Shown here piece after piece: positions 31,721 through 62,858 of a stretch of 64,000 bases of DNA. The DNA comes from Shigella phage SGF2, in sequence record MN148435. One strand, written 5' to 3'. The notes beneath the pieces were generated by a model, which was given only the letters and a program-made list of their open reading frames with translations, searched no databases and was not told where the DNA came from. Position 1 is the first letter of the stretch. Every line of letters starts with the position of its first letter. A program made the position numbers and the translations under genes.

Positions 31721-31776
31721 TTAGAACTCCTTAATATATCAGTGTACACTAAGGAGTATACATTATAAGTTACTGT

Positions 31777-50643: not shown

Positions 50644-51006
50644 CTATTGGTTTTTAATCAACTCGATCGACTTACGGATATAAAGAATATCTCGGAAGTT
50701 TCGATAGTTGTTCATAAATTGGTGCTTCTGGAAAGTAGCTTCTTCCAGAGATTTCTTTGCTTCTGCGTAGTTTTTACGGGCAAGATGTACAACCCGCTCT
50801 GGTAACACATTTGCACGACGGATGATATACTTGTGAGCCTTCATGTTGCTTTGCTCACGAGCAATCTTACCTTTAGCAACTTTGATACCATTTGCAATCC
50901 AAGCAAGTTCTTGCTCAAGCTCATCGTTGGACATTCCACCGAGATTTGATGCAACCTTGTTCAGAGTTTCAATATTAACGTTGCCCTTAATGGGACGTGT
51001 ATTCAT
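50644..51006 (-). CDS. hypothetical helical protein
   Basis: 120-aa ORF. Confidence 0.35.
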   Translation of the reverse strand: MNTRPIKGNVNIETLNKVASNLGGMSNDELEQELAWIANGIKVAKGKIAREQSNMKAHKYIIRRANVLPERVVHLARKNYAEAKKSLEEATFQKHQFMNNYRNFRDILYIRKSIELIKNQ

Positions 51007-51007
51007 A

Positions 51008-51163
51008 CTTACTCCTGTTGTTTACACTCGTCAATAACCCACTGATAAGTGGATTGCCCAGAAAAGAAACACTGAATAAATCCAGATGTTCTCTGCGTTA
51101 CCAGTGCTAGTGCACAAATCACTACCGCTGCTGCTAGCAGTTTTAAATCTAATTTAGACATAT
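51008..51163 (-). CDS. small membrane protein (50 aa)
   Basis: ORF below cut-off MSKLDLKLLAAAVVICALALVTQ...; RBS GAGAGG; directly after terminator. Confidence 0.3.
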
Positions 51164-51180
51164 TTCCTCTCATTGAATTT

Positions 51181-51206
51181 AAAAAAGGACTCTCCGAAAA
51201 GAGTCA
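51181..51206 (-). terminator. rho-independent terminator (minus strand)
   Basis: minus-strand GACTCTT-TTCGG-AGAGTCC then TTTTTT. Confidence 0.55.
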
Positions 51207-51234
51207 AGCTTTAAATCCAAAAAGATATTACCCA

Positions 51235-51390
51235 ATATCTGTGGATAACCTGCTCTTAAAATATCTATCCGACGGATGTTTGAGGAACATTCCTCGCCCT
51301 AGCATCGGCCCCATACGGGAAATATATTAAGATTAGGTTAGTTGAGTCAGAATAACTCACATAGCCCTCAGAAGAAGGCTATAGATGTTA
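51235..51390. repeat. repeated non-coding element R1 (3' of small-protein family gene)
   Basis: shares GGATGTT.GAGGAACA...CCTAGC...CACATAGCCCTC..hairpin..GGCTATA...GTTAC blocks with element at 56290-56425. Confidence 0.4.
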
Positions 51391-51392
51391 CT

Positions 51393-51635
51393 CTACTTAT
51401 CCCCACCAAAGGCGAGGTAGGCATCTTTGATTTCAGTAACCTGTGAATCAGGTTTGAATGCAGACAGGTGTCCTGTGTTCAGGTTAACTGCGTTGGCAGG
51501 GATGATGCAACCCTCAACTTTAGTGTCAGGGATTCTCATGTAGTAACTTGAAAAGTGCTCAGCTGAGAAAACTTCCCCAATAGAGATATCACCAATCTTC
51601 GCTAGAACATCCTTAGCTGGTTTCCCTATTTTCAT
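51393..51635 (-). CDS. small paralogous-family protein (member A)
   Basis: 80 aa; family pattern IGDISIGEVF...YYMR...AVNLNTGHL. Confidence 0.45.
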   Translation of the reverse strand: MKIGKPAKDVLAKIGDISIGEVFSAEHFSSYYMRIPDTKVEGCIIPANAVNLNTGHLSAFKPDSQVTEIKDAYLAFGGDK

Positions 51636-51868
51636 TACTCACCTTTCTTAGCACGATCTTTGGCAGTTTTGCCAGTGCGGATACGATGGGAAACGTTAAC
51701 CAGAGTGCCACCATCAATTACAGTAACGCTCTTGTTTTTAGCCAGATCAAACACAGTCTTCTCTGTGCCACCCAAGCGAATTTGCTTAGGCTCACTGAAG
51801 GTTTGGGTTGATTTGGATTGGAACTGGAACGGTTGACGGATTGCATCGATTGCGCTTACTTTAGACAT
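51635..51868 (-). CDS. small basic hypothetical protein
   Basis: 77-aa ORF; not obviously a family member. Confidence 0.35.
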   Translation of the reverse strand: MSKVSAIDAIRQPFQFQSKSTQTFSEPKQIRLGGTEKTVFDLAKNKSVTVIDGGTLVNVSHRIRTGKTAKDRAKKGE

Positions 51869-52099
51869 AGGGGAAATTCCTTAAAAAGTTATGGCTGCGT
51901 AGAGGGAATTCCCTACGCAAATTGGGCCGCCCACAGAGAGGCGTCATAGTACTAAAAGGAGGAGAGAAGAGGGCTTATTTAGCTACCTTTTTCTGTCCGT
52001 TTACGAACCAGATAATTGAACCGTCAGGCTGTCGTTGACCGAAGCCTTTCATGTTGGTCATTTCTTCTGTAGAATCATTAAATGTGATCACTTGTTTTC

Positions 52100-52348
52100 C
52101 TATGGAGTTAAGATAATTTCAGCCTTACTAAACTTCTCACCAACAACCATATCTCCAGAGATAACACGCAGTTCTCCAGTGCCCAAATTAACAGCTCCAG
52201 CAGGTTGACAACCCCTGCTCTTAGCTGTCAGCATGTAAATCTTTTGAAGATGGCACTCTTGGAGAGTGAACACATCTGACATATTTAGATCTTTAACACG
52301 GAGGACTGTTTCCTCTTTGCTCTTAACTTTAATATGAATAGTGCCCAT
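52100..52348 (-). CDS. small paralogous-family protein (member C)
   Basis: LRVKDLNMSDVF...IYML...AVNLGTGEL. Confidence 0.45.
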   Translation of the reverse strand: MGTIHIKVKSKEETVLRVKDLNMSDVFTLQECHLQKIYMLTAKSRGCQPAGAVNLGTGELRVISGDMVVGEKFSKAEIILTP

Positions 52349-52350
52349 AA

Positions 52351-52596
52351 TTACTCCTGAATCACTGACATACGAATCATTTCTACCTGATCATCAAGAC
52401 CTTTAACAGATAGTACACCTGTGGAAAGGTTTACCACAGGAACCCAGCCACTGGCTATACGGATATTACCAGAAGCATTTTCAACCCTCATATAATATTG
52501 AGGAGAGGCACTTCCGTGCTGTACCACAAAGGGGTTTCCGGGAATGATCGTTTCCAACCGTACCGTATTATCCTTTTTCTTTGGGATGATTTTCAT
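52351..52596 (-). CDS. small paralogous-family protein (member D)
   Basis: LETIIPGNPF...YYMRV...VVNLSTGVL. Confidence 0.45.
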   Translation of the reverse strand: MKIIPKKKDNTVRLETIIPGNPFVVQHGSASPQYYMRVENASGNIRIASGWVPVVNLSTGVLSVKGLDDQVEMIRMSVIQE

Positions 52597-52847
52597 TTAG
52601 AACCCTTAATAACGTTAGCTTCAACTTTAACAGGGATAACAGGAATACCCTCGACCGGACCACTCAGATTACCATCTTCCAGCCTGACACACACTACTCG
52701 ATCTCGTGCAACTTCCACCCAATTAGTAGATGCATCAGTGCAGACCATGTGTATTGGTCCATTCTCCTCTAAACGAAATGTATCACCCTTCTTCAGAGTA
52801 TGGAGTTTCACAGTCTTGGTAGTTCTATTTAATTCGTTAACTTTCAT
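52593..52847 (-). CDS. small paralogous-family protein (member E)
   Basis: LHTLKKGDTF...VRLEDGNLSG. Confidence 0.4.
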   Translation of the reverse strand: MKVNELNRTTKTVKLHTLKKGDTFRLEENGPIHMVCTDASTNWVEVARDRVVCVRLEDGNLSGPVEGIPVIPVKVEANVIKGSK

Positions 52848-52855
52848 ATTGATTC

Positions 52856-53167
52856 CTATTTAAGTTTGAGGCTAATGTTAAGGTGCATACATGCCCTGTT
52901 CTGTACAGCAGCATAACTTCTACCGAGCATGTCAGCCATTCTCTGAATAGACATGAACCCAGCATTACGGATAAGGAACTGATCTTCTTCTTTAGACCAC
53001 TTAACTCGGATTACAGCTCTAGAGATACCGAACTTAGTGCAAGCTGTATTAACTGCATTCTCCGTTACATTCATAATCTGAGCAACCTCTTGAACCGAGT
53101 ACTCTTTGATTAGTCTCCGAAGATTTTCAATCTGCATCGGAGTCCATATAGTTCTTCGTGCTTTCAT
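52856..53167 (-). CDS. DNA-binding protein with two tandem HTH (SANT/Myb-like) repeats
   Basis: internal repeats WTPMQIENLRRLIKEYSVQEVAQIMNVTENAV / WSKEEDQFLIRNAGFMSIQRMADMLGRSYAAV. Confidence 0.4.
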   Translation of the reverse strand: MKARRTIWTPMQIENLRRLIKEYSVQEVAQIMNVTENAVNTACTKFGISRAVIRVKWSKEEDQFLIRNAGFMSIQRMADMLGRSYAAVQNRACMHLNISLKLK

Positions 53168-53474
53168 ACATCCTCCAATTAAACATTTATATAAGACTTG
53201 CTTAGATAAAGATTCAATAAAATAGGGGGAGGGGACGAATCCTCCCTTATCCTATTAGTTAATATTGCATGTAAGATCTAACAATCGGTTGCCTTTGTAG
53301 GAATAAGCGTAAAGCCAATCCAGCACTAAACTCCCGCCCCCCTTAGTGGGCTGGGTTATTAAAGGGTAACGCCCTTATGGGCTAGTTACGTGAATGTTAG
53401 TTTGATAGGAGATCTGAAGTCCTATCTCAAAGGACTCTCGTAAGAATCCTTCACGATATTACTTATCCAGCTCC

Positions 53475-53696
53475 TTAGTAGACCAAACCTATAGCCTTTG
53501 CATCAGGCTGAGGGACTACTTTTGCACTAGGACGATAGCCATCCACTGAACCATTCCAAAGGTTGACACAGGTAATATACCCATCGTTCAAGTAGTCTGT
53601 TTTAATCCAGAAGTGTTTATCATGACCAAAAATACTTCCATTTGGAAGGGTGGACAGTTCAACAGTTTTAAGGGATTGTTTAGAATCTAATTTCAT
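53475..53696 (-). CDS. small paralogous-family protein (member F)
   Basis: LSTLPNGSIF...FWIKTDY...CVNLWNGSV. Confidence 0.45.
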   Translation of the reverse strand: MKLDSKQSLKTVELSTLPNGSIFGHDKHFWIKTDYLNDGYITCVNLWNGSVDGYRPSAKVVPQPDAKAIGLVY

Positions 53697-53705
53697 ATAA
53701 GTTCC

Positions 53706-53903
53706 TTAATACACCAAGCCATGTAAGAGAAACACTCTCTTAGTTAACTCTACTTTAGCTCTGTAATAAGCCTTAGAACCTAACAGTCGGCGTTTAACAA
53801 AGAACTTAATGTCATTGCTAACATCTTGTATTAAACGCTCCTGTACAGCTTCTGAGGAGCCATTAATCGAATCAATTAACACCTTTGTAGATGTGTAATT
53901 CAT
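53706..53903 (-). CDS. hypothetical protein
   Basis: start MNYTSTK 1 nt after lipoprotein stop. Confidence 0.3.
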   Translation of the reverse strand: MNYTSTKVLIDSINGSSEAVQERLIQDVSNDIKFFVKRRLLGSKAYYRAKVELTKRVFLLHGLVY

Positions 53904-53904
53904 A

Positions 53905-54204
53905 TCACCACTCTTTACCGGTTGTAATCGTAGAGCCACCACACCACAACGCTGTATCAATCACAACATTGTCTGGCGTAGACTTCTCTTCGTTGATAGA
54001 AGGGTTAGCATTAGAGCAGGTTGCTCCGTTCCAGCGCATATCAATCTCACCAGAAGGAACCTTCTCACCTTTATGCCAGCGAGATACACAAATACCATCC
54101 ACTGCTACTGCACACCATCCATCAGGACGGCTCTGTACGCAGCCTGTAAGGGCCACACAGACAAGGAAGATACAGATTAAGGATATTACACCACCCCAAC
54201 TCAT
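53905..54204 (-). CDS. Cys-rich lipoprotein (superinfection-exclusion candidate)
   Basis: signal peptide MSWGGVISLICIFLVCVALTGC with lipobox LTGC; 8 further Cys. Confidence 0.5.
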   Translation of the reverse strand: MSWGGVISLICIFLVCVALTGCVQSRPDGWCAVAVDGICVSRWHKGEKVPSGEIDMRWNGATCSNANPSINEEKSTPDNVVIDTALWCGGSTITTGKEW

Positions 54205-54223
54205 AACTATCTCCTATTAGATT

Positions 54224-54299
54224 TGGTGCACCCTACAGGACTCGAACCTGTAACCAACGACTTAGAAGGTCGCTGCTCTGTCCATTGAGCTAAGGGTGC
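54224..54299 (-). tRNA. tRNA-Arg (anticodon UCU), CCA encoded
   Basis: minus-strand GCACCCTTAGCTCAATGGACAGAGCAGCGACCTTCTAAGTCGTTGGTTACAGGTTCGAGTCCTGTAGGGTGCACCA folds as cloverleaf: 7-bp acceptor, D-arm GCTC/GAGC, anticodon loop CTTCTAA, T-loop TTCGAGT. Confidence 0.85.
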
Positions 54300-54308
54300 T
54301 AGATTTGT

Positions 54309-54518
54309 TTAACTAAAGATACGAATGGCTACATCGTGACCGATATGACCGGGAACTTTATGCTGTTCTATTTTCAAACAGTGTTTACAGATACGAGATA
54401 CACGAGATTCTTTTCTCTCGACCGGAGTGTCTTTAGCGTGGGTGATATGTAGGTTCTCAGTGATCACCCACTCGTGTTTACATCCAGAATCTTCGGGCTT
54501 TTTCTTACGAAAGAACAT
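54309..54518 (-). CDS. small zinc-finger protein, paralogue 1 of 3
   Basis: start MFFRKKKPEDSGCKHEW...RICKHCL. Confidence 0.4.
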   Translation of the reverse strand: MFFRKKKPEDSGCKHEWVITENLHITHAKDTPVERKESRVSRICKHCLKIEQHKVPGHIGHDVAIRIFS

Positions 54519-54526
54519 AACACCCC

Positions 54527-54691
54527 TTAGATCAGATCTGTTTTCTTGTGCAGACCACACACTTTACAGCGAGAGTAGATACGCAACCCTTGTCGCTCTC
54601 TGTCAGTAAGTTTATTTGTGATCGTCAGTTCATAAGTATGAAGATCTTCCCACTCATGGAAATGAAAGAAGCGTTTGAACCATTTGATCAT
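54527..54691 (-). CDS. small zinc-finger protein, paralogue 2 of 3 (54 aa)
   Basis: ORF below cut-off MIKWFKRFFHFHEW...RCKVCG. Confidence 0.4.
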   Translation of the reverse strand: MIKWFKRFFHFHEWEDLHTYELTITNKLTDRERQGLRIYSRCKVCGLHKKTDLI

Positions 54692-54700
54692 AATGATTCC

Positions 54701-54862
54701 TTAGATTACATCACGATGACTAACATCACCACACACCTTACACTGAATAACGTAACGTGTGCCCTTGTCATTATTCCCATCTGAATCTGTATAGACCAGA
54801 GGGCGAGTATTAATAATCTTCCAATCATGACAATGAAAGACACGCTTTAGCCACTTGAACAT
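54701..54862 (-). CDS. small zinc-finger protein, paralogue 3 of 3
   Basis: start MFKWLKRVFHCHDW...QCKVCGD (internal Met of track ORF). Confidence 0.4.
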   Translation of the reverse strand: MFKWLKRVFHCHDWKIINTRPLVYTDSDGNNDKGTRYVIQCKVCGDVSHRDVI

Positions 54863-54869
54863 ATTAACC

Positions 54870-55121
54870 TCAAGCACAAGCAGGGAGAGTGATGATTTTA
54901 TACTGACCTTCAAACTCTCCAAACAAACCCAAGAATGTAGGACTGTAAGTACCAGTACAAACAAACTCATCAAACAATTCGTTATAGCTAGGCTTGATCT
55001 TCCAAGCCCATACATAACCCATTTTGTCAATTGCAATGTAACGAGAGTTCAGAGGAACAGTCATCATCACATCATCAACTTCAATCACTTTAGTGATTGG
55101 TGCAGCTTGGAAGTTTTTCAT
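54870..55121 (-). CDS. hypothetical protein
   Basis: 83-aa ORF. Confidence 0.3.
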   Translation of the reverse strand: MKNFQAAPITKVIEVDDVMMTVPLNSRYIAIDKMGYVWAWKIKPSYNELFDEFVCTGTYSPTFLGLFGEFEGQYKIITLPACA

Positions 55122-55303
55122 ACTTTACCTTTGATGAAAATATCATTACCACAGACACAGCATGAACGAACAACAGTAGCGCCACGCTGAACGATACGAA
55201 CCTCTTCTTTAACCAGATTAACACGAGCACCACAGCAAGGAGAGTTAACATAAGAGTAACCAGCTTGTGTATTCTTGATTGTTTGCTTAGACATTTGATT
55301 CAA
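55118..55303 (-). CDS. small zinc-ribbon protein
   Basis: CCGAR...CCVCG. Confidence 0.3.
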   Translation of the reverse strand: MNQMSKQTIKNTQAGYSYVNSPCCGARVNLVKEEVRIVQRGATVVRSCCVCGNDIFIKGKV

Positions 55304-55643
55304 GATCTCTCAGTTGTTTAGCCAATTGTTCGCACTCGTTGATGCAGAACTCTTCTGTTCTTGGAACCCCATTAGGGTTGAACCATGTCTTATCACCTGC
55401 ATGGGCACAATCAAATCCGACTGTATTTAAACCACCCATTTCTTCGAGAGAATCCTGCCACGTAACACCGCCATGGACGTTGACATAACAAACCTCTTCC
55501 TCGTCCCCATTATATCCGGTGAAGTTTTTACTGCTCAGAGTATCTGGCAACTCCACATACCCACATAAGTGTGAGTAGTTCATGTGCATAATCACAGCAC
55601 GAAGACCTGATTTAGTTTCCCAATCTTTAACTATGCGTCTCAT
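55287..55643 (-). CDS. hypothetical protein
   Basis: start MRRIVKDW with AGAGGTG RBS. Confidence 0.35.
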   Translation of the reverse strand: MRRIVKDWETKSGLRAVIMHMNYSHLCGYVELPDTLSSKNFTGYNGDEEEVCYVNVHGGVTWQDSLEEMGGLNTVGFDCAHAGDKTWFNPNGVPRTEEFCINECEQLAKQLRDLESNV

Positions 55644-55694
55644 ATAAGCACCTCTTGTTAGTTTAAGTAAGAGCTGTCCCTTAATTAAAACAAC

Positions 55695-55718
55695 AAAGGC
55701 CACCCGAAGGCAGCCTTT
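55695..55718 (-). terminator. hairpin terminator (possibly bidirectional)
   Basis: AAAGGC..CCCGAAGG..GCCTTT hairpin flanked by T-rich tracts on both strands. Confidence 0.35.
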
Positions 55719-55721
55719 CTT

Positions 55722-55931
55722 TTATTGACTCACGCCACGAATCAGATGATTCTGTAGCGTTTCGTCTTCTGCATTATAAAGGAATGCGAACATCAATTCC
55801 TTAGCCACATCTCTTGAGCAATTAAGACACTTAGAGATTTGCGTTAGTTGCATGTTGCGATCAGTGTGTTCCATCAAGGCAATGCGAATGATCTCTCGCA
55901 TACCTATTACATGGGTTGTTTTAACCGGCAT
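55722..55931 (-). CDS. hypothetical protein
   Basis: start MPVKTTHVIG...; small 46-aa ORF lies upstream. Confidence 0.3.
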   Translation of the reverse strand: MPVKTTHVIGMREIIRIALMEHTDRNMQLTQISKCLNCSRDVAKELMFAFLYNAEDETLQNHLIRGVSQ

Positions 55932-56289
55932 AGGTCCAATTACCTTGCTTATTACGGATGGCTGACATTGCATGAACCCAGAAGCCTTCCAGTTTCAGAG
56001 CACCGTTAGCTACTGCATCCATACGTTCAGGGCGGTTCATACGTTTGGTTGATACTTTCATACCTATCTCTCTTTGTTAGTGGAGGCATTATTGCCAGTT
56101 GATATAAGGGATAGCCCTAGTCAGGAGGCTAACTCTGACCGCGTACTCATTGCCGACCTTCTCTGCCTAAGAGTTCAGGTTCTAGAGCTATCTCTTATTC
56201 CAACTGGTGAAGACTCCCTACCCCTAGGAAGTCTCCTGAATCCCAAACCAATATGTACCCCTACATATCAGAAAGTCTTTCGAAAATTA

Positions 56290-56425
56290 ACAGGTTTTAG
56301 TCTAGCACCGGATGTTCGAGCAAGCTCTCCCTAGCGGTGTGGCATATGCCTGATTAATAAGTTAATGAGGAACACCCTCACATAGCCCTCTGATAAACAC
56401 AAGGGCTATAAGTCGGTGTTACTTT
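56290..56425. repeat. repeated non-coding element R2 (3' of small-protein family gene)
   Basis: GGATGTTCGAGC...CCTAGCGGTG...TGAGGAACACCCTCACATAGCCCT-loop-AGGGCTAT...GTTAC; related to R1. Confidence 0.4.
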
Positions 56426-56637
56426 TGAGATAAACACAGATCAGGACGTGGCATAACAGTGGTTGATAGGCCGAAGACTTCAACAGAACCACTATTCAAG
56501 TCAGCAGCTTTACACAAACCGTCAGGAGTTTTATCTTCTAGCATCAGCCAGAAACGTCTATCGTAAGAGAAAACATCACCGCCCTTAACGTCTTCTGCAT
56601 TTGCATATTTAGGATAATCGACTACTTTAATTTCCAT
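56419..56637 (-). CDS. small paralogous-family protein (member G)
   Basis: VKGGDVF...FWLMLED...ADLNSGSV. Confidence 0.45.
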   Translation of the reverse strand: MEIKVVDYPKYANAEDVKGGDVFSYDRRFWLMLEDKTPDGLCKAADLNSGSVEVFGLSTTVMPRPDLCLSQK

Positions 56638-56641
56638 CTAC

Positions 56642-56896
56642 TTACCCTTTGTTGGTGATTACAACATCATGAAGTACAATAACCTTGCTTTTTGAGCTGA
56701 GCTTAAGGACTTGCTTGTTTGTTAGACTGAGGACGACACAACCACCATCAGAGGGTTTAGTCTCCTCAACCTGCGATCTAAACAGATGAACAACCATGTA
56801 GAAATCTGCTCGTGTTTCCTTGATTTGGAATACATCTCCGAGTTTAAGATCACCAACACACAAAGACGGTTCATTTACTTCAAGATTAATCTTCAT
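56642..56896 (-). CDS. small paralogous-family protein (member H)
   Basis: LKLGDVF...FYMVV...VLSLTNKQV. Confidence 0.45.
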   Translation of the reverse strand: MKINLEVNEPSLCVGDLKLGDVFQIKETRADFYMVVHLFRSQVEETKPSDGGCVVLSLTNKQVLKLSSKSKVIVLHDVVITNKG

Positions 56897-57122
56897 CTTT
56901 AGCCTCTATGTTAGTTATGTGGAGATCACTGCGTACTTGGCAAACTTCATCCCGTTTAAAAGGCATGAGCTTTCCAGTTACCACATCAACACAGTTGACA
57001 TAATTGTCTGCGTACAATGTGTCGGTTCTAATGTAAAGGGACTCTTTACGCTCAAACAGAACTCCCGGCTTCATGTTATTTAAGCGAAGCATGGTATAAT
57101 TAGGTTTAATATTAACTTTCAC
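56886..57122 (-). CDS. small paralogous-family protein (member I)
   Basis: MKPGVLF...YIRTD...CVDVVTGKL. Confidence 0.45.
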   Translation of the reverse strand: MKVNIKPNYTMLRLNNMKPGVLFERKESLYIRTDTLYADNYVNCVDVVTGKLMPFKRDEVCQVRSDLHITNIEAKDED

Positions 57123-57373
57123 TAATCCACCTTATTGGTAAGACGAACGTTATCAATCAACTGGACGTTGGTGTCACTTTTCAGTACGGTAACTTTATCC
57201 GATACTAGATCTAATACAACTCTCCAACTACCCATTAAACTGTACTGTCTAATACTACTCGCATCTAATTTGACAACCAGATAAATCTTCTTTTTAGGTG
57301 GGATAGTTTCAAAAACATCACCAACCTTCAGTTCCTTCAGTTGTTTAACCACAGGCACTGTATTGATATCATG
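57122..57373 (-). CDS. small paralogous-family protein (member J), probable GTG start
   Basis: LKELKVGDVF...YLVVKLD...VVLDLVSDKV; GGAG RBS before in-frame GTG; longer track ORF overlaps upstream gene. Confidence 0.35.
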   Translation of the reverse strand, partial: HDINTVPVVKQLKELKVGDVFETIPPKKKIYLVVKLDASSIRQYSLMGSWRVVLDLVSDKVTVLKSDTNVQLIDNVRLTNKVD

Positions 57374-57665
57374 CTTCACTATTAATCTCCTGCTGCTTAG
57401 CAATAGCCACTCGCAAGTCTTCATTAGCACGAGCAAGGCGCAATACTTCATGGTTGAGATTCTGAAGACGCTTGTTTCTGTCCTCAACTTGCATAATAAG
57501 ATCGTTAAGAGTTGCTTTAACTTTCTCATTATACATCTCATCCACTCGGACTAGAGATTTGTACATTCTCTCCCAGCTTGCTGCTTTGTTTCTTAGAACA
57601 ATAAATCCTAGAACGCTGACAGTTAAACAGCTTACAAAAAGGAATTTATATACTTCTAAAGTCAT
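57369..57665 (-). CDS. membrane-anchored coiled-coil protein
   Basis: N-terminal TMD FLFVSCLTVSVLGFIVL then heptad-like helix. Confidence 0.35.
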   Translation of the reverse strand: MTLEVYKFLFVSCLTVSVLGFIVLRNKAASWERMYKSLVRVDEMYNEKVKATLNDLIMQVEDRNKRLQNLNHEVLRLARANEDLRVAIAKQQEINSEA

Positions 57666-57864
57666 ATTATTTACCCTTTATCAGAGATTAAAAGTAATAT
57701 TATTTAAGTAAGTTATATTTAGTAAACTTATTTTCTAAGAAATTTTCAAAGGGTCTATATACAGAGCATTACCCATAGTCCCAGAATACTACCATCTTTT
57801 TCAATAAATTTACTAAGTGGTTGGTTTATAAAGGAATTTAGTTTGTCAAATCTGGCACTAGTGA

Positions 57865-58254
57865 TTACTCCATAGAGCTATTATCAAACACTAAATCACC
57901 ACAATACATAGGATTGGCATACCATTTTGGCACCCCTTCGCTCTTACTCTGAAAGTAAGTCCCACTGTACAGCGGAACATAATTCTTCTTAAGGGCACGT
58001 TTAGCAAGTCGCTCGCTTTCTCCAATGGCTTGCTTAGTCATCGGATTTTTATCACGAATCAGCTTTACATAACGTTTATAAGGTTTCTCCTGTTTTAATA
58101 GTACCGGAATCCACTCAAACTGGTTCTTTTGTCTTATCACCTGTTCAGCGGTCAGTTTTCGTTGAGCCATTCTATTTATCACGGTATCCGCAACTAAAGC
58201 CTTACATGCGGTTGGCTGGTTCCCTGCCTCATAATAAATAGTCAATGTCAACAT
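57865..58254 (-). CDS. SleB-like cell-wall hydrolase domain protein
   Basis: TIYYEAGNQPTACKALVADTVINRM...KNQFEW resembles SleB/Hydrolase_2 core. Confidence 0.5.
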   Translation of the reverse strand: MLTLTIYYEAGNQPTACKALVADTVINRMAQRKLTAEQVIRQKNQFEWIPVLLKQEKPYKRYVKLIRDKNPMTKQAIGESERLAKRALKKNYVPLYSGTYFQSKSEGVPKWYANPMYCGDLVFDNSSME

Positions 58255-58386
58255 TAGCTGGGCCGTTGTTATCAGAACTTGCTACCTCCTGTTTTGTTGT
58301 TTCCATAAACACCCTCGAAAAGATGCTTATAGAAACACCCCTCCCTTTCGGAATAGGTGTTATCTTACTATTTGTAACTTACACCA

Positions 58387-58686
58387 TTACTTTTTTACAT
58401 ATATTGCCAGTGGCGACTTGGTGTTTAGTGGAGTGAAGTTCATGTCCAGTTTATACCCCATCTTGAAAACCATTTCCAACAACATATCGACGGAGAACTT
58501 TGAAAGCTGTCCATTCATAAGGTTACTAATCCTTGGCTGGCTAACACCTAGCTTCTCTGCGGCAACACACTGCGACCAACCCTGATCACGAATTAACTTC
58601 GTAAGAATGATGATCAGCTTGGACTTCAATGAAAGCACGTTGACCTCTACAGGGTCTGTACTTATTAGCTCGAATGGGTTTTTCAT
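58387..58686 (-). CDS. HTH XRE-family DNA-binding protein (antitoxin/repressor-like)
   Basis: DQGWSQCVAAEKLGVSQPRISNLMNGQLSKFSVDMLLEM. Confidence 0.6.
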   Translation of the reverse strand: MKNPFELISTDPVEVNVLSLKSKLIIILTKLIRDQGWSQCVAAEKLGVSQPRISNLMNGQLSKFSVDMLLEMVFKMGYKLDMNFTPLNTKSPLAIYVKK

Positions 58687-58709
58687 AGAAAATTCCTATA
58701 CAATAGACA

Positions 58710-58736
58710 TAAAAAGCCCCAGCCGTAGCCGGGGCA
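58710..58736 (-). terminator. rho-independent terminator (minus strand)
   Basis: minus-strand GCCCCGGC-TAC-GGCTGGGGC then TTTTTATG. Confidence 0.45.
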
Positions 58737-58797
58737 AACCTGAAAGCAACACATGACCGTTGCTATAAATACACTCGCAAATGCACTTACAGCAACG

Positions 58798-58821
58798 CAA
58801 AAAGCCGCTCAAAGGCGGCTA
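58798..58821 (-). terminator. second hairpin terminator (minus strand)
   Basis: minus-strand AGCCGCC-TTTGA-GCGGCT then TTTTTGCG. Confidence 0.4.
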
Positions 58822-58900
58822 TGCGGAAGCTTCAAATGGGGAGAGGGCACGACGCTACAGAAAGAGCGTCATAGTACTAAAAGAGGGGGCTATATTCCTA

Positions 58901-59344
58901 CTACTTAACCCTTGCCTCTTTGATGGGGTCAATGTATTTTTCAACGCCCCACTTGTGTTTACTATCTGCGTAGAAAACATCAGGTGCACACTGGCTTGTC
59001 TTAGGGAAAGCCTGCGGGTCTTTCGTGCTACCTTTAAACTTCTGTTTACCACGGGTGCGACCATTACAGAGGATTTCTAACTTCTTCTCTTCTTCTGTTT
59101 TAGCTCCCCCGCTCTGTAACAAAGAACGTTTATGATCGGCTAACAATAACGCATCAGCACGATGAACACGATGGCCTACACGTTTTGCCACACTGGAAGG
59201 AATATGGGATTCAGCCTCAGTTTTTGCAGCGCGACGTTTTAAACTGCGCTTGCTGACGTGATTGGTTGCCTTTGGCTTCTCTTTCTCCAGTTCAGAGATA
59301 GAAAAACAACGCCCGCCCTTCATGCTGATTTTAGATTTAGCCAC
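58901..59344 (-). CDS. basic hypothetical protein
   Basis: 147-aa Lys/Arg-rich ORF. Confidence 0.35.
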   Translation of the reverse strand: MAKSKISMKGGRCFSISELEKEKPKATNHVSKRSLKRRAAKTEAESHIPSSVAKRVGHRVHRADALLLADHKRSLLQSGGAKTEEEKKLEILCNGRTRGKQKFKGSTKDPQAFPKTSQCAPDVFYADSKHKWGVEKYIDPIKEARVK

Positions 59345-59413
59345 AATCTTATTCCTTTTAGTGATAAGTTATATCGGGCAAGCCCATCAAGGTGACAGGC
59401 TTGAACAAATAAC

Positions 59414-59623
59414 TTAATCAAGTAAACTAAACGATTTCCAACTGCGTAGCAGGATTGTACCGTCATCCATAGCTACGCATAACTTTAACAGTTTCTTGTT
59501 AGCACTACTCACCGTTGTAATTCGTCCAGTTGTACATTTACCTTTATTGCTGTAAAGATATACAACACGACGGCCTAACAAGCGGGAAGGTGCTTTCTTA
59601 AATTCTGAAATGTTAGTGATCAT
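59414..59623 (-). CDS. hypothetical protein
   Basis: 69 aa; ATGA-type coupling with upstream gene. Confidence 0.3.
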   Translation of the reverse strand: MITNISEFKKAPSRLLGRRVVYLYSNKGKCTTGRITTVSSANKKLLKLCVAMDDGTILLRSWKSFSLLD

Positions 59624-59844
59624 AATGCTTGATACCTTTGAATGTGTTCAATACGGGTGGATTGAGCAAATGACGCTTTAACAGCCATTTTCCTAACTTC
59701 TTCTTTACGCTGGTTAGTGTGTACAGTATCCCAATGTTTGTTATCACGTTGGCGCTGTAATATCTTACTACATTTGCGATGGTTTCCCGTGCTGCGATGT
59801 TTCTCACAAATAGGACACTTGCCAAAATTACTACTGAATATCAT
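59620..59844 (-). CDS. small basic zinc-binding protein
   Basis: GKCPICEKH...HRKC; preferred over overlapping alternative frame by coupling to neighbours. Confidence 0.3.
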   Translation of the reverse strand: MIFSSNFGKCPICEKHRSTGNHRKCSKILQRQRDNKHWDTVHTNQRKEEVRKMAVKASFAQSTRIEHIQRYQAL

Positions 59845-60068
59845 TTTCTCAATCCCAGCTTTCTTAAGATACGGCCTAACGTTGTTTCTTGCGTGATAAT
59901 ATAGCTGATTGCTTCACGTTCCAATGTTTCAATCTTCATTGGTGACGGATACCATTCACCGGTAATAACACATTTACATTCAACGCCATACTTTTTAGAT
60001 AGGCGGTAATGTTGACCGTTGACAAGATTCCTATAAATAGTGGTATGCGTAATTAACATGATCATCAC
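59841..60068 (-). CDS. hypothetical protein
   Basis: 75-aa ORF. Confidence 0.3.
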   Translation of the reverse strand: MMIMLITHTTIYRNLVNGQHYRLSKKYGVECKCVITGEWYPSPMKIETLEREAISYIITQETTLGRILRKLGLRK

Positions 60069-60111
60069 CTTTGATTAAATTCTTTGATTAATGCACTGAA
60101 TCAATGCACTG

Positions 60112-60148
60112 ATAAAAGAAAAGGCGCTACCCGTTAAGATAGCGCCTT
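60112..60148 (-). terminator. rho-independent terminator (minus strand)
   Basis: minus-strand AGGCGCTA-loop-TAGCGCCTT then TTCTTTTATC, after stop of 60171-61079. Confidence 0.45.
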
Positions 60149-60170
60149 ATGTTTATTCAAATTGTCTTAC

Positions 60171-61079
60171 TTATGCCGCCTGACGTGCCGCCATAATTTC
60201 AGCCGCTTTACGCAATACTTCTTCCTCTTCTGCTTTCGCCGCTTGTTCGGTACGGGTAGCAACCGTTGAAGAGATACGACCGCGCAGACTTTCTAACTTC
60301 TCCTGCATAGCTGCAACAGTCTTTTCCATTTCATCAGCGTATGAATCGAGTGATTCTAATTCCTTGCTTGATGCGTTCATCAGATAATCATCCGAGATCG
60401 CTACCGTCGAGGCCGTGATTTTCTTGATGAGTGAATCAAAGGACTTTTTAACCTTCCCAACTTCTTCACTCAGGGCGATAGTGTTATCGCTGGTTGCGCC
60501 GTTGCGCTCATCAGCCAGTAATTTGGCTTCAATACGGATTGCATTCAAGCGTTCAACCAAAGCGTAAATATCCTGATTAAAATCTTCCTTGTTTTTCGCC
60601 GGAATTTGCAGGTGTGCCGCCACGTTGTCATTGCAACCTTTGTAGAAGTTAGGATTATCCACTTCAATTGCACGACCTAATGCAAAGTTTTCGAAAGCGT
60701 TTGACCAGCGAGCGCGGTTTTGTTCCATTTTGGCCTTAATTTGCGCTTCTTTCGCATCTTCTTTAGCTTTCGCCTCACCTTCCAGATTAATCCACTTTTT
60801 ACGACCATTTGCCGCATCGGTGTTAAACTTGATAGGAGTTAAGAAAGTAATCGCGGTGGCAATAACATCCATATCGCGGAAACGTTCGGTTAACAGGAAG
60901 TCAACCGCCGCCTGCAATACGTCCAGCTTTTTACCGTTACTGCGGAAGTGCTGTAAGTGCCCTAACAGGAAGTTAGAAACATCTTGTTTGATCGCCGCGT
61001 TATTGCTACGAATGTTGTTAGCCAGTGCGTTAAAACCAGATTCGTTAACCAGAGTAAAAACTTTAGCCATGATATTCAC
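60171..61079 (-). CDS. hypothetical helical protein (first gene downstream of large non-coding region)
   Basis: 302-aa ORF; coiled-coil-rich C-terminal half. Confidence 0.4.
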   Translation of the reverse strand: MNIMAKVFTLVNESGFNALANNIRSNNAAIKQDVSNFLLGHLQHFRSNGKKLDVLQAAVDFLLTERFRDMDVIATAITFLTPIKFNTDAANGRKKWINLEGEAKAKEDAKEAQIKAKMEQNRARWSNAFENFALGRAIEVDNPNFYKGCNDNVAAHLQIPAKNKEDFNQDIYALVERLNAIRIEAKLLADERNGATSDNTIALSEEVGKVKKSFDSLIKKITASTVAISDDYLMNASSKELESLDSYADEMEKTVAAMQEKLESLRGRISSTVATRTEQAAKAEEEEVLRKAAEIMAARQAA

Positions 61080-62858
61080 CTTTCAATTGTAAGGGCACTA
61101 TGCCCCGCTCTCTATGAGCTTGTTTAAGTCACTATTAACTTATCTCTAACCACTCACTTTTTTAAGTAGTTACAGGTAAGCGAGGCGGTCTTATCAGGAG
61201 TTAACCTTGCCGCCTCCTTATCCGTGATGTTTCATCTGGTATCTTTAATTAGTCGCTATAAACGAAGCCGACCTGATAGCGATGATCAATCATCACAATA
61301 AGGCAGTGCGTCCGACTCTAATTAGTTACGTTTATTGTAACCGTCGGCAATATCGTCTACTTTGCTTTCGCTCTCGCCTATCCTTTTGTATCAACTCTCA
61401 ATCACTAGCCATCGCCCACAACGGGATGCTATTGTGAAAGAGTCATTGACCGTCTAATGTTCTGACGTTTTATATCTTTCGGCAAGTTTACTACATAAAC
61501 CGACTATGTACTTTCATCTTGTGATGAATCTCAAGCCGTTCACATCGTAAACGTTCACACTAAACCTTATTGTTAAATAGCAATTTGCCACTTTTTAACC
61601 GCTCCCCGCCGCCCTCAATTGGGCGTTAATTTGTCGGACTTGCCTACCCTGATTAACTTCTTTCACTGTAGCACCATGTTAGCGATGACCGCCGCTACCC
61701 TTAACCGTGGGCGATTAGCTTAAGTCTTTGCGTGTACTCAATGAATCCGTCTATCAGTGGTGACGTTTCCAGTAAGGGAATGTAAGGCTGTTTTCTCTGA
61801 TAGTTTAGAGAGTCTTACACCGTTTTATCTGGTATGCTTTCCGATGGTTATTATCATCAAGCATATTCAACCGATATAGGAGAACGTTTAAATTATTAAA
61901 GAGCGGTAAATCTATCAGTGTACTTTCTCACACTATGCAACTGTTAGCCGTTGTTACGCTTTTCACTGAAGCGATGATTTGCTTAGTGAGTGCTCATTAT
62001 GAATCATGTTGTTTTCGCTGTCAACCGCTTTTTAATCTTTTTCGTCGTTCCCGCTATTGGGAGGATATATCAATCAGCTTTATTTGATTGAAGATTAAGC
62101 GGTGAGGCTTAACTTATGACTCATATTGTTAAAGAGCGTTTAGCCTTTTAAAGTGTCTGCTAATCACTGTCACATTGAAGGCTTACTGATTCATTAACAG
62201 GACGCCTAACCCTGAACTACTCGCCGCACTATGTGCCACCTTTCCCGCGATACGTTGACTTGGGAACTAGTTAACGTTGTTTTGTTAACTTGTGGTTAGT
62301 ATGGACTACCTTAACCACGTTTGCAACTCTTTTTTATCATCTTCTTTTAATTCCTTTCCCTTATCTCGCTTGAATCTTTGCGAAAGGGCAAGATGATAAG
62401 TTTTTAAAGAGCGGAGATATTTTAAGTCATCGCTGACTATGCTCACTATATATCAGGCTTTTTCTGGTGTCAATACTCTTTTTAAGTATTTTCACTTTCT
62501 AGCCTGATTTTTAAAGAGCGGGGCAAGTTTCCTTGCCTTGTATGTTTTTCATCGTACCCGATGAATTGAAGTATACGCCAACCAATGTGTAATGCAATAG
62601 GGTAAAGCAAATTATTTTAAACTTTTTCATAGTGGGATAGGTAAAAGAACGCGCACGCGTGATACATCATAGAAAATAGCTTGTAAAGCATTATTTAACG
62701 GCCTGTAACGCATCACAACGAGCTAAAGGAGGGTAAGGAATACAATCACCTTAGAAATGAGAAAAGCCTCACTAGGAGGCTTACAGGAAGGATTTAAAGC
62801 AACAGATACAGTAGGACCATAGGCATGACTACGGCACAATATAGGAGAAAGATTAAGC
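61080..62858. promoter_or_regulatory. 1.8-kb ORF-free repeat-bearing region (candidate early promoter cluster / origin / terminal region)
   Basis: no ORF of 60 aa or more in six frames; four copies of TTAAAGAGCG at 61896, 62129, 62404, 62511; duplicated TTT(C/T)ATCTGGTAT(C/G)CTTT at ~61226 and ~61820; CACTATA-like elements. Confidence 0.4.
62753..62782 (-). terminator. rho-independent terminator (minus strand)
   Basis: minus-strand AAGCCTCC-TAGT-GAGGCTT then TTTCTCATTTC, after 62859-63230. Confidence 0.45.

Follow-up and report, generated by a model that had tools for sequence, protein, structure and literature searches.

Two intercistronic segments in the early operon of a Kuravirus

The stretch of DNA analysed here (hereafter the window) comprises 64,000 nucleotides (nt) of Shigella phage SGF2 (sequence record MN148435), and our subject is an element that occurs in it twice, in two spacers between small early genes. 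Megablast places the window in Kuravirus (phiEco32-like podophages, subfamily Gordonclarkvirinae), with 92-95% identity to many Escherichia phages. The phiEco32-like phages are models of sigma-factor-based takeover of host transcription and widely used therapy candidates, and nearly every annotation in their early regions reads "hypothetical protein". In the window, the minus strand carries all genes between 48 and 60 kilobases (kb), including an expanded family of small early proteins (at least nine members of 72-84 amino acids, 51393-57541, minus strand) with the pattern MKI...GDVF...YM...G..AVNL.TG....V. Segment A (51174-51392, minus strand) is the spacer between an 80-amino-acid gene of this family and a small membrane-protein gene, and segment G (56062-56418, minus strand) is the spacer between a 72-amino-acid family member and a 46-amino-acid gene. 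A Pfam search of the flanking proteins, the small early family included, returned no families. The sole RNA gene found by ARAGORN or Rfam in the window is a tRNA-Arg(TCT) at 54224-54299, and a tRNA or tRNA-like identity of the element was dropped for that reason.

Both segments lie in what reads as one long early transcription unit of the host RNA polymerase. Strong, near-consensus sigma70-type promoters are present on the minus strand at 62473-62445 and 62024-61996, in agreement with the promoters described for phage SU10 (PMC4281155), and no minus-strand copy of the phage-sigma promoter TAATGTATA was found between 64 kb and 31.7 kb, the first being at 31757; we therefore assign the whole stretch to a single host-polymerase unit. 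Terminator-like sites interrupt this unit at 60148, 58820, 58735, 55718, 53246 and 51205, and between 44 and 64 kb there are 29 terminator-like hairpins against 13.7 expected, the early operon (51188-62541) being rich in them. Downstream of the element follow about 20 kb of early genes, with a membrane protein or endolysin first and amidoligase, amidotransferase, ATP-grasp and regulator genes among them.

An earlier note on this DNA had described a repeated non-coding element of about 150 base pairs (bp) immediately 3' of small-family genes, which is borne out, the genes being on the minus strand. A strict pattern, GCTAGGGNGAGN{2,10}CTCRAACATCCG, has two matches in the window, at 51273-51303 and 56309-56335 on the minus strand, and was absent from all of 100 shuffles. 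Two covariance models were built, R1 for the 3' domain and R2 for the whole core. Over the 64 kb, R1 matched only copies A (78.9 bits) and G (57.4 bits), and R2 likewise only A (62.7 bits, E 1.2e-17) and G (65.2 bits, E 2e-18). Plain BLAST of A against G within the window is weak (17-nt seed, E 0.3), but across genomes the match is significant, with E 3.5e-9 between G and the SU7 copy of A. About 240 IMG/VR loci were fetched by loose DNA patterns, and R1 run on 100 unrelated ones (L128-L227) gave nothing real. Thus, segments A and G are homologous far beyond chance. The homology also goes further than 150 bp, since the aligned segments are collinear over about 215 nt, through two downstream hairpins (H6 and H7). 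One of the ordered blocks listed in the note, TGAGGAACA, is not collinear: it lies in helix P5 in copy A and in helix P3 in copy G.

Each copy belongs to a new folded RNA family

The core of the element is about 115-120 nt long and folds into five helices, P2, P3, P4 and Px, the last enclosing P5. In copy A, the core (51269-51388, minus strand) was defined from R1, R2, RNAalifold and pair counts. It is preceded by a 5' motif starting AGTAAC(ATC) at 51389-51392, directly after the TAG stop codon (51395-51393) of the 80-amino-acid gene, and consists of P2 (51382-51374 with 51369-51361), P3 (51358-51355 with 51347-51344), a linker with CTAACC (51343-51320), P4 (51319-51310) and Px (51308-51303 with 51274-51269), which encloses an invariant internal loop (CTAGGGC, 51302-51296, and AAACATC, 51281-51275) and P5 (51295-51282). 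In copy G, R1, R2 and the alignment define the core (56305-56415, minus strand) with P2 (56409-56401 with 56390-56382), P3 (56379-56376 with 56370-56367), P4 (56350-56341), Px (56340-56335 with 56310-56305), an internal loop (CTAGGGA, 56334-56328, and GAACATC, 56317-56311) and P5 (56327-56318); here the AGTAAC motif (56423-56418) holds the TAA stop codon of the 72-amino-acid gene.

Helices vary in sequence among the copies and keep their pairing. P2 is UAUAGCC...GGCUAU, often capped by a UNCG tetraloop, and P3 is GAGN...NCUC. P4 appears as CCC-GUAU-GGG, GCC-GUAU-GGC or GGC-AUAU-GCC, Px as CCGAUG:CGUCGG, UCGGUG:CGCCGA, CACCG:CGGUG or AUAGCG:CGCUAU, and P5 as GAGG..CCUC, GAGC..GCUC or GAGA..UCUC. 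We collected 39 copies from public phage genomes, IMG/VR and metagenomes, which collapse to 37 with distinct core sequences. The internal loop, CUAGGGN / NAACAUC, is invariant in these 37 and near-invariant overall, deviating in phages CVT22 (CTACG / CCTC) and Klyazma.

Three lines of evidence support the fold. RNAalifold on a plain MAFFT alignment of 12 sequences recovered P2, P4, Px and P5, with compensatory changes at 7 of 20 pairs. In a manual structural alignment of the 37 copies, 97.3% of 1073 cells were canonical pairs, against 34-47% when the 3' partner was slid. Among 14 representatives of five lineages, 99.4% of the cells were paired (slid controls 38-45%), both sides had changed in 19 of 25 pairs, and none of 500 shuffles reached this; this last alignment was hand-fitted to the structure, and the RNAalifold and 37-copy lines are independent of that fitting. 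The check that the note had proposed, alignment and folding with covariation across related phages, thus finds similarity far above background and compensated pairing. The hairpin ATAGCC...GGCTAT named there is real, being P2, and carries no U-tract.

The strand on which selection acts can also be read from the pairs. U·G and G·U pairs are frequent, and would be A·C and C·A mismatches if read on the plus strand, and UUCG, UACG and UCCG tetraloops are present; the fold therefore belongs to the transcribed minus strand, and together the sequence comparisons show selection on the RNA fold of the gene-sense strand. Of the readings offered in the note, the RNA-level ones (a processing or stability element, or a small RNA) are strongly supported by the compensatory changes, the UNCG tetraloops and the strand-specific G·U pairs, and among these a small RNA and a processing element both remain live. 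A recombination site found no support, since pairing rather than sequence is kept and the element lies beside unrelated genes in three phage families. More generally, a purely DNA-level element, be it a recombination site or an origin, would draw on a double DnaA box that lies beside an AT-rich stretch in copy A (see below); neither copy G nor any of the Citrovirus copies has that box, and the compensatory changes and strand-specific G·U pairs speak for selection on RNA. We regard such an element as very improbable.

Some parts of the fold were less secure or were dropped. A closing helix P1 (ATCTAT with ATAGAT) was rejected, as the changes in its 5' strand (ATC, GCC, ATT, ACC, ACT) are uncompensated. 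The linker TAACCT could pair at long range with AGGTTA in the tail; this putative helix covaries when types A and G and that of contig L273 (see below) are compared, and is broken or bulged in the phiEco32 G copies and in L006, L012 and L266; it remains unproven. The only sigma70 match within the element is weak (9/12, 51350-51321) and not conserved, and no phage-sigma promoter TAATGTATA was found near it.

No known family matches the element. Searching Rfam 15 at E<=10 gave nothing relevant in 51000-56700, only terminator-like small-RNA noise of 19-20 bits in 51170-51400, and nothing relevant in the Klyazma copy; over the whole window only the tRNA-Arg attained threshold. Nor was the element described in the literature that we searched on phiEco32, SU10, 7-11 and Kuravirus. 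Each copy is thus a member of a new folded RNA family, encoded on the minus strand inside the host-polymerase early transcript, and by sequence comparison the family is well supported as previously undescribed. The shape of the fold is likewise well supported; what it does would have to be deduced from its setting.

The family spans three families of sigma-encoding podophages, namely Gordonclarkvirinae, Grimontviridae and some Zobellviridae, and so offers a new regulatory part with 19 covarying pairs and no Rfam counterpart. Kuravirus and Suseptimavirus phages (phiEco32, SU7, HC-25922) have two copies each, one A-type and one G-type, and the Moazamivirus-like Salmonella Grimontviridae (7-11, SE131, SeKF_80, pSal-SNUABM-01) have one A-type copy each. 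Members of the small early family lie directly upstream of A and G, and also of the A-type copy in 7-11 and pSal. A divergent copy was found in L273 (JBOFGJ010000684.1), a 48.7-kb contig binned as a Flavobacterium sp. metagenome-assembled genome. It encodes a 446-amino-acid protein 41% identical to CVT22 gp67, and is probably a mis-binned Citrovirus-like phage. This contig has its own expanded small-gene family, with members ending EEENE.

Citrovirus (Zobellviridae) genomes are laid out like phiEco32, with small early genes at one end, followed by genes for amidotransferase, COOH-NH2 ligase, amidoligase, ATP-grasp, primase, phage sigma factor and DNA polymerase, and the element lies 2-3 kb from the genome end that holds the early genes. 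The Klyazma and CVT22 copies were spotted by eye and then added to the training of R2, which then recovered a copy in Klebsiella phage Asterion (52.5 bits), a phage outside the training set. Erwinia phage Pecta and three other Citrovirus-like contigs gave no detectable copy. In every lineage the element lies between early genes, with P2 beginning 0-20 nt past the upstream stop codon, which the AGUAAC motif sometimes includes.

The note had also suggested a weaker third copy at 53300-53400. The core is absent there: region F (53168-53474) has no R1 or R2 match at E<=5-10, and was rejected as a third full copy on both models. All that it shares with A and G is the 5' module (53425-53462, minus strand), which reads GTAATATC, a hairpin GAAGGATTCT-TACG-AGAGTCCTT and then TGAG. 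The module common to A, G and F comprises GUAAYAYC, a tetraloop-capped hairpin, UGAG, a second hairpin and CUAAC. The window has just three matches to GTAA[CT]A[CT]C followed by a hairpin and [GT]GAG; they start at 56422, 53462 and 51391 on the minus strand, each behind a small-family gene, and on the third copy the note was therefore right in part. The rest of region F is a different conserved structured RNA with a terminator at 53246-53227 and 11 compensatory pairs by RNAalifold on six phages, and it is present in Kuravirus, Suseptimavirus and Salmonella phages, including 7-11 and pSal-SNUABM-01. Two blocks, CGTGAAGGATTCTTACGAGAGTCCTTTGAG and GTTAGGTCTTACATGC, lie in region F, for which Rfam gave no match.

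Cronobacter phage GAP52 has only the 5' half of the element (L283 11735-11801, minus strand), a 67-nt spacer before an ATP-grasp gene with P2 and P3: P2 is TATAGAGTG..CGCTCTATG, followed by GTGAA..TTCAC and then CAATTAA. This remnant suggests that the 5' module is able to stand alone. Taken together, the comparisons describe a modular family, built of a 5' module, a core, a variable tail and a 3'-end signal.

Downstream hairpins, terminators and possible functions

The full unit runs from AGUAAC at the small-gene stop codon through the five-helix core, a tail, H6 and H7 to a candidate 3'-end-forming signal; in copy A this signal is an intrinsic terminator, in copy G a long hairpin of the RNase III type. 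After Px, copies A and G are collinear through H6, a UUUGG motif and H7. H6 of copy A (51223-51240, minus strand) has an AT-rich 7-bp stem and a G-rich loop and is followed by TTTTTGG; its homologue in copy G covaries. A terminator scan identified H7 of copy A (51181-51205, minus strand) as an intrinsic terminator of the classic type, GACTCTTTTCGGAGAGTC followed by CTTTTTT; the small membrane-protein gene comes next, with its ribosome-binding site 12 nt further on. The note had held that the hairpin was not a classic terminator, which is right for P2 and wrong for the 3' end of copy A, where the stem at 51205-51188 is followed by six T; by the intrinsic-terminator criterion, only this H7 qualifies, and P2 and H7 of copy G do not. 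The H7 terminator is annotated in SU7 and 7-11 and is conserved in the Kuravirus and Moazamivirus copies. In the Kuravirus A and Moazamivirus copies, the order is core, unpaired conserved stretch, hairpin and Rho-independent terminator, the last lying 65-90 nt past the core and immediately ahead of the next ribosome-binding site. A U-rich hairpin takes the place of H7 in L273, Klyazma and Asterion.

We favour, tentatively and at well under even odds, a reading in which the transcript of the upstream gene gives rise, through its 3' part, to a stable RNA unit that binds protein. In this proposal, the structured 3' portion would accumulate as a discrete stable RNA of about 200 nt, whose 5' end would be set via processing at the shared 5' module and whose 3' end would be set by the terminator (copy A) or by RNase III (copy G). 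A protein would be bound via the invariant internal loop and recurring UAGGG-type loops, and the RNA may serve as a regulator, sponge or decoy in host takeover. Through their unlike tails, A and G would each acquire additional functions of their own; at the DNA level, the copy A tail also bears a double DnaA box apparently taken from the host nrdD control region.

Several observations favour this proposal. The anatomy as read from sequence (structure, unpaired conserved stretch, hairpin, terminator) resembles that of a small RNA (sRNA). Not all terminators of the operon are preceded by such an RNA; A and F each couple about 200 nt of conserved RNA to a terminator, and the other terminators do not. 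Sequence inspection found no alternative terminator/antiterminator pairing. In addition, the internal loop differs in CVT22 and Klyazma, and a co-evolving protein partner, which this divergence suggests, therefore fits better than a metabolite or the conserved RNA polymerase. Known sRNAs derived from 3' untranslated regions (UTRs), such as CpxQ and SroC, likewise start right after a stop codon, end in a Rho-independent terminator (as copy A does) and combine conserved structure with an unpaired conserved stretch. Structured RNA ligands of the ProQ/FinO type offer another comparison, pSal-SNUABM-01 being annotated with a ProQ/FinO-family protein. Compared with typical Hfq sRNAs, the present fold is far more elaborate, and copy G has no terminator.

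Several points weigh against a stable unit: no promoter or defined 5'-end processing site was found; the hairpin after the core is no terminator in CVT22 and copy G; the element sits exactly where a cis read-through signal would be, upstream of terminators that precede about 20 kb of early genes; and these terminators must be passed to express those genes, there being also no minus-strand phage-sigma promoter from 64 kb to 31.7 kb. We consider cis control of read-through, in the manner of lambda nut, HK022 put or a protein-dependent attenuator, nearly as likely. In such a mechanism, the nascent fold, alone or with a phage or host protein bound at its loop, would carry the host RNA polymerase past the terminator behind it and in this way gate the downstream genes. 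The setting is suitable, since the element lies in a sigma70-transcribed operon with no phage-sigma promoter until 31757, the Kuravirus A and Moazamivirus copies have a canonical terminator 65-90 nt past the core, that of copy A must be passed for the downstream early genes, and the citrovirus element is promoter-proximal. For 7-11, an undefined antitermination strategy has been postulated to be needed for early transcription to reach the sigma gene (PMC8948821), and the element, if it were an antiterminator, would supply it; it is at any rate a testable candidate for how early transcription gets past internal terminators. Against this mechanism, the terminators at 60148, 58820 and 58735 precede copy G, so that its element cannot explain how they are passed, no pairing mutually exclusive with the terminator was found, and the loop is not conserved in CVT22 although the host RNA polymerase is.

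Comparison with known antitermination systems is similarly divided. The put sites of phage HK022, about 70 nt long with two stem-loops, act in cis on RNA polymerase without protein factors and suppress downstream terminators. Like putL and putR, the present copies are repeated structured RNAs in the early operon of a phage that relies on host RNA polymerase, located upstream of intrinsic terminators, and the dependence of put function on a folded RNA with conserved loop nucleotides is similar in kind. The element differs in having five helices over about 115-120 nt plus a tail of about 90 nt, and in that both copies lie in one operon with terminators also ahead of copy G. R2, run with filters off over the whole HK022 genome, gave at best 7.1 bits (E 0.84), outside the early regions. 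Of the nut components, neither boxA (CGCTCTTA-like) nor a boxB hairpin with a GNRA-like pentaloop was found when A and G were read on the sense strand; one boxA-like string alone is present, TGCTCTTAAAA, on the antisense strand as part of the DnaA double box.

A link to the lambda/P22 leaders is present further downstream in copy G. Its H6 (56269-56250, minus strand, GGGG loop) and H7 (56236-56209, minus strand, TAGGGGTA loop, no U-tract) are collinear with those of copy A. The stems of G-type H6 and H7 differ among phiEco32, SU7 and the window and stay paired, and the H7 loop UAGGGGUA is conserved; since the pairing of H7 is kept through sequence change without a U-tract, this hairpin would matter as RNA, a further point in favour of the stable unit. 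Only copy G then has a long irregular hairpin (56095-56207, minus strand; L001 2478-2590; about 24 bp of lower stem) just before the next gene start at 56061. By BLAST, the 67-nt top of this hairpin (56118-56184) is 80% identical to the gene N/24 leader of 22 Salmonella P22-like phages, SE1 and ST160 among them; in BTP1 the match falls between nutL and N. The hairpin has an internal inverted repeat, and the P22-like leader folds alike, with stems of 22-24 bp; the folds reach -48 and -51 kcal/mol (z -3.9 and -4.8), the values for copy G being -48 and -3.9. In E. coli genomes, BLAST found no match to copy G, to its distal part or to region F. Homology between a leader just past nutL and the portion of copy G that follows the core counts for read-through control, and the lambda/P22 nut-N leader is likewise an early-operon leader RNA before a terminator that separates immediate from delayed genes. 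On the other hand, these phages have no known homologue of N, and it is the long hairpin, not the core, that matches the leader.

The long hairpin of copy G has the predicted shape of an RNase III substrate, with at least 20 bp mostly paired, and brings in a simpler role, in which the element would only punctuate messenger RNA: its hairpins would guard the upstream 3' end and RNase sites would split the polycistronic early RNA. A start 0-20 nt after the stop codon in every lineage and the recurrence of the 5' module (UNCG-capped hairpin plus second hairpin) in A, G and F, and alone in GAP52, are consistent with this role, as is the likeness to the RNase III sites between T7 early genes, which are also repeated structured elements after stop codons in a host-polymerase early operon; the roughly 24-bp stem of copy G would be of that type. 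However, a T7 site is a single irregular hairpin of about 20 bp and the core is a multi-helix junction of short helices, in which Px and P5 together, at 10-11 bp, do not offer RNase III enough length. Protection would not call for five helices and a near-invariant loop of 7+7 nt across three phage families, and we judge punctuation alone to be unlikely.

Two further readings of the fold are less probable. Small self-cleaving ribozymes are typically multi-helix RNAs with few invariant loop nucleotides, and they occur in phage intergenic regions. The element could be a new ribozyme of this kind that processes the early transcript, its internal loop being the catalytic core; the invariant loop, variable helices, intercistronic site and two copies per genome fit, and no partner is known. 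The loops of CVT22 and Klyazma deviate, and no similarity to Rfam ribozymes was found at E<=10, and this reading seems improbable to us. A metabolite riboswitch would account for the succession of structured domain, terminator and gene. It is unlikely, and shares the lowest place with the DNA-level element considered above: there is no Rfam match and no switching helix, no alternative pairing between tail and H7 is conserved in Kuravirus, Moazamivirus and L273 sequences, 65-90 nt and an extra hairpin separate the fold from the terminator, the loop varies by lineage, and the downstream genes differ (membrane protein, endolysin or soluble protein). In descending order of probability, we thus rank a stable RNA unit, read-through control, punctuation, an antisense RNA against nrdD (discussed below), a ribozyme, and a riboswitch or DNA-only element.

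Whether as a factor-independent or factor-dependent antiterminator that reprograms the host RNA polymerase in sigma-encoding phages or as a self-cleaving ribozyme, the element might represent a new class of phage RNA acting on host machinery, with the DnaA box of copy A possibly coupling early transcription to the replication-initiation state of the host; we put this forward as a possibility at well under even odds.

A double DnaA box in the tail of copy A

Past its core, copy A runs on into an unpaired stretch that contains a double DnaA box (51240-51259, read on the minus strand), TTAAGAGCA gg TTATCCACA, with the composition of a high-affinity double box: the consensus 9-mer TTATCCACA and a weaker box in the same orientation 2-3 bp ahead. 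The sequence TGTGGATAA is found once only in the window. In 5423 of 5426 complete E. coli genomes, about 42 nt of the tail (51261-51220) have one chromosomal match, 14-55 nt upstream of the nrdD start codon (L284 1501-1542). At the centre of the match, the phage reads tTTAAGAGCAggTTATCCACAg where E. coli reads tTTAAGAACAggTTATCCACAg, and homology beyond the boxes brings the total to about 42 nt. From DnaA chromatin immunoprecipitation sequencing, tTTAAGAACAggTTATCCACAg is reported to be bound, as a "double DnaA box", ahead of nrdD (PMC11317965). Every Kuravirus and Suseptimavirus A copy has the stretch unchanged, the Salmonella phages keep it in part, and the DnaA box is absent from copy G, region F and all Citrovirus copies. 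Hence, the DnaA/nrdD feature is a property of the copy A tail, not of the repeated fold. Compared with the nrdD double box, the phage site sits in an early operon in the orientation opposite to local genes, belongs to copy A only and lies outside the repeated core.

Copy A could alternatively, and without excluding the other readings, act in trans as an antisense RNA against host nrdDG messenger RNA, its tail blocking or altering translation. Over positions -14 to -46 of the E. coli nrdD 5' UTR, beside the Shine-Dalgarno sequence, 31 of 33 nt are complementary to the tail, the two differences being one G·U pair and one U·U mismatch. Predicted duplexes of A-type tails reach -31 to -58 kcal/mol, against about -20 +/- 4 for shuffles, and the copy G tail is at background. 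In Kuravirus and Suseptimavirus the stretch is invariant and predicted to be unpaired, and a terminator follows, as in Hfq-type sRNAs. However, the in vivo binding of DnaA to the shared double box at nrdD (PMC11317965) would explain conservation at the DNA level. Moreover, when the nrdD leaders of Salmonella, Citrobacter rodentium and Raoultella were taken for a test of host tracking, Salmonella phage tails paired no better with the Salmonella leader than with that of E. coli. Silencing ribonucleotide reductase offers no obvious gain, and the window has no nrdD of its own. As the tails show no preference for the cognate host, a captured high-affinity host DnaA site is the simpler reading of these sequences, and we rate an antisense function as rather improbable, below punctuation. 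The site would then be a host-derived DnaA-binding site, predicted in phage DNA, within a lytic phage operon. As to the nrdD leaders themselves, those of E. coli, Salmonella, C. rodentium and Raoultella all conserve the block CTGTGGATAACCTGTTCT, and the E. coli leader has a second TTATCCACA at L284 1591-1599.

The gene right after an A-type unit (window 51009-51161, L277 17246-17398, L273 3325-3803, L005 10222-10647) often encodes a small hydrophobic membrane protein, as with gp90 of Kuravirus and the transmembrane (TM) proteins of L273. Klyazma and Asterion have a 50-amino-acid two-TM protein in this position and 7-11 has an endolysin. Production of such proteins too early could be toxic.

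Finally, several records place open reading frames on this RNA. "Hypothetical proteins" are annotated over the fold in Asterion (CDS0013, L282 2654-2812) and over copy A in myPSH2311, SU10 and Paul. These are probably spurious calls, and the covariance model can be used in annotating these genomes.

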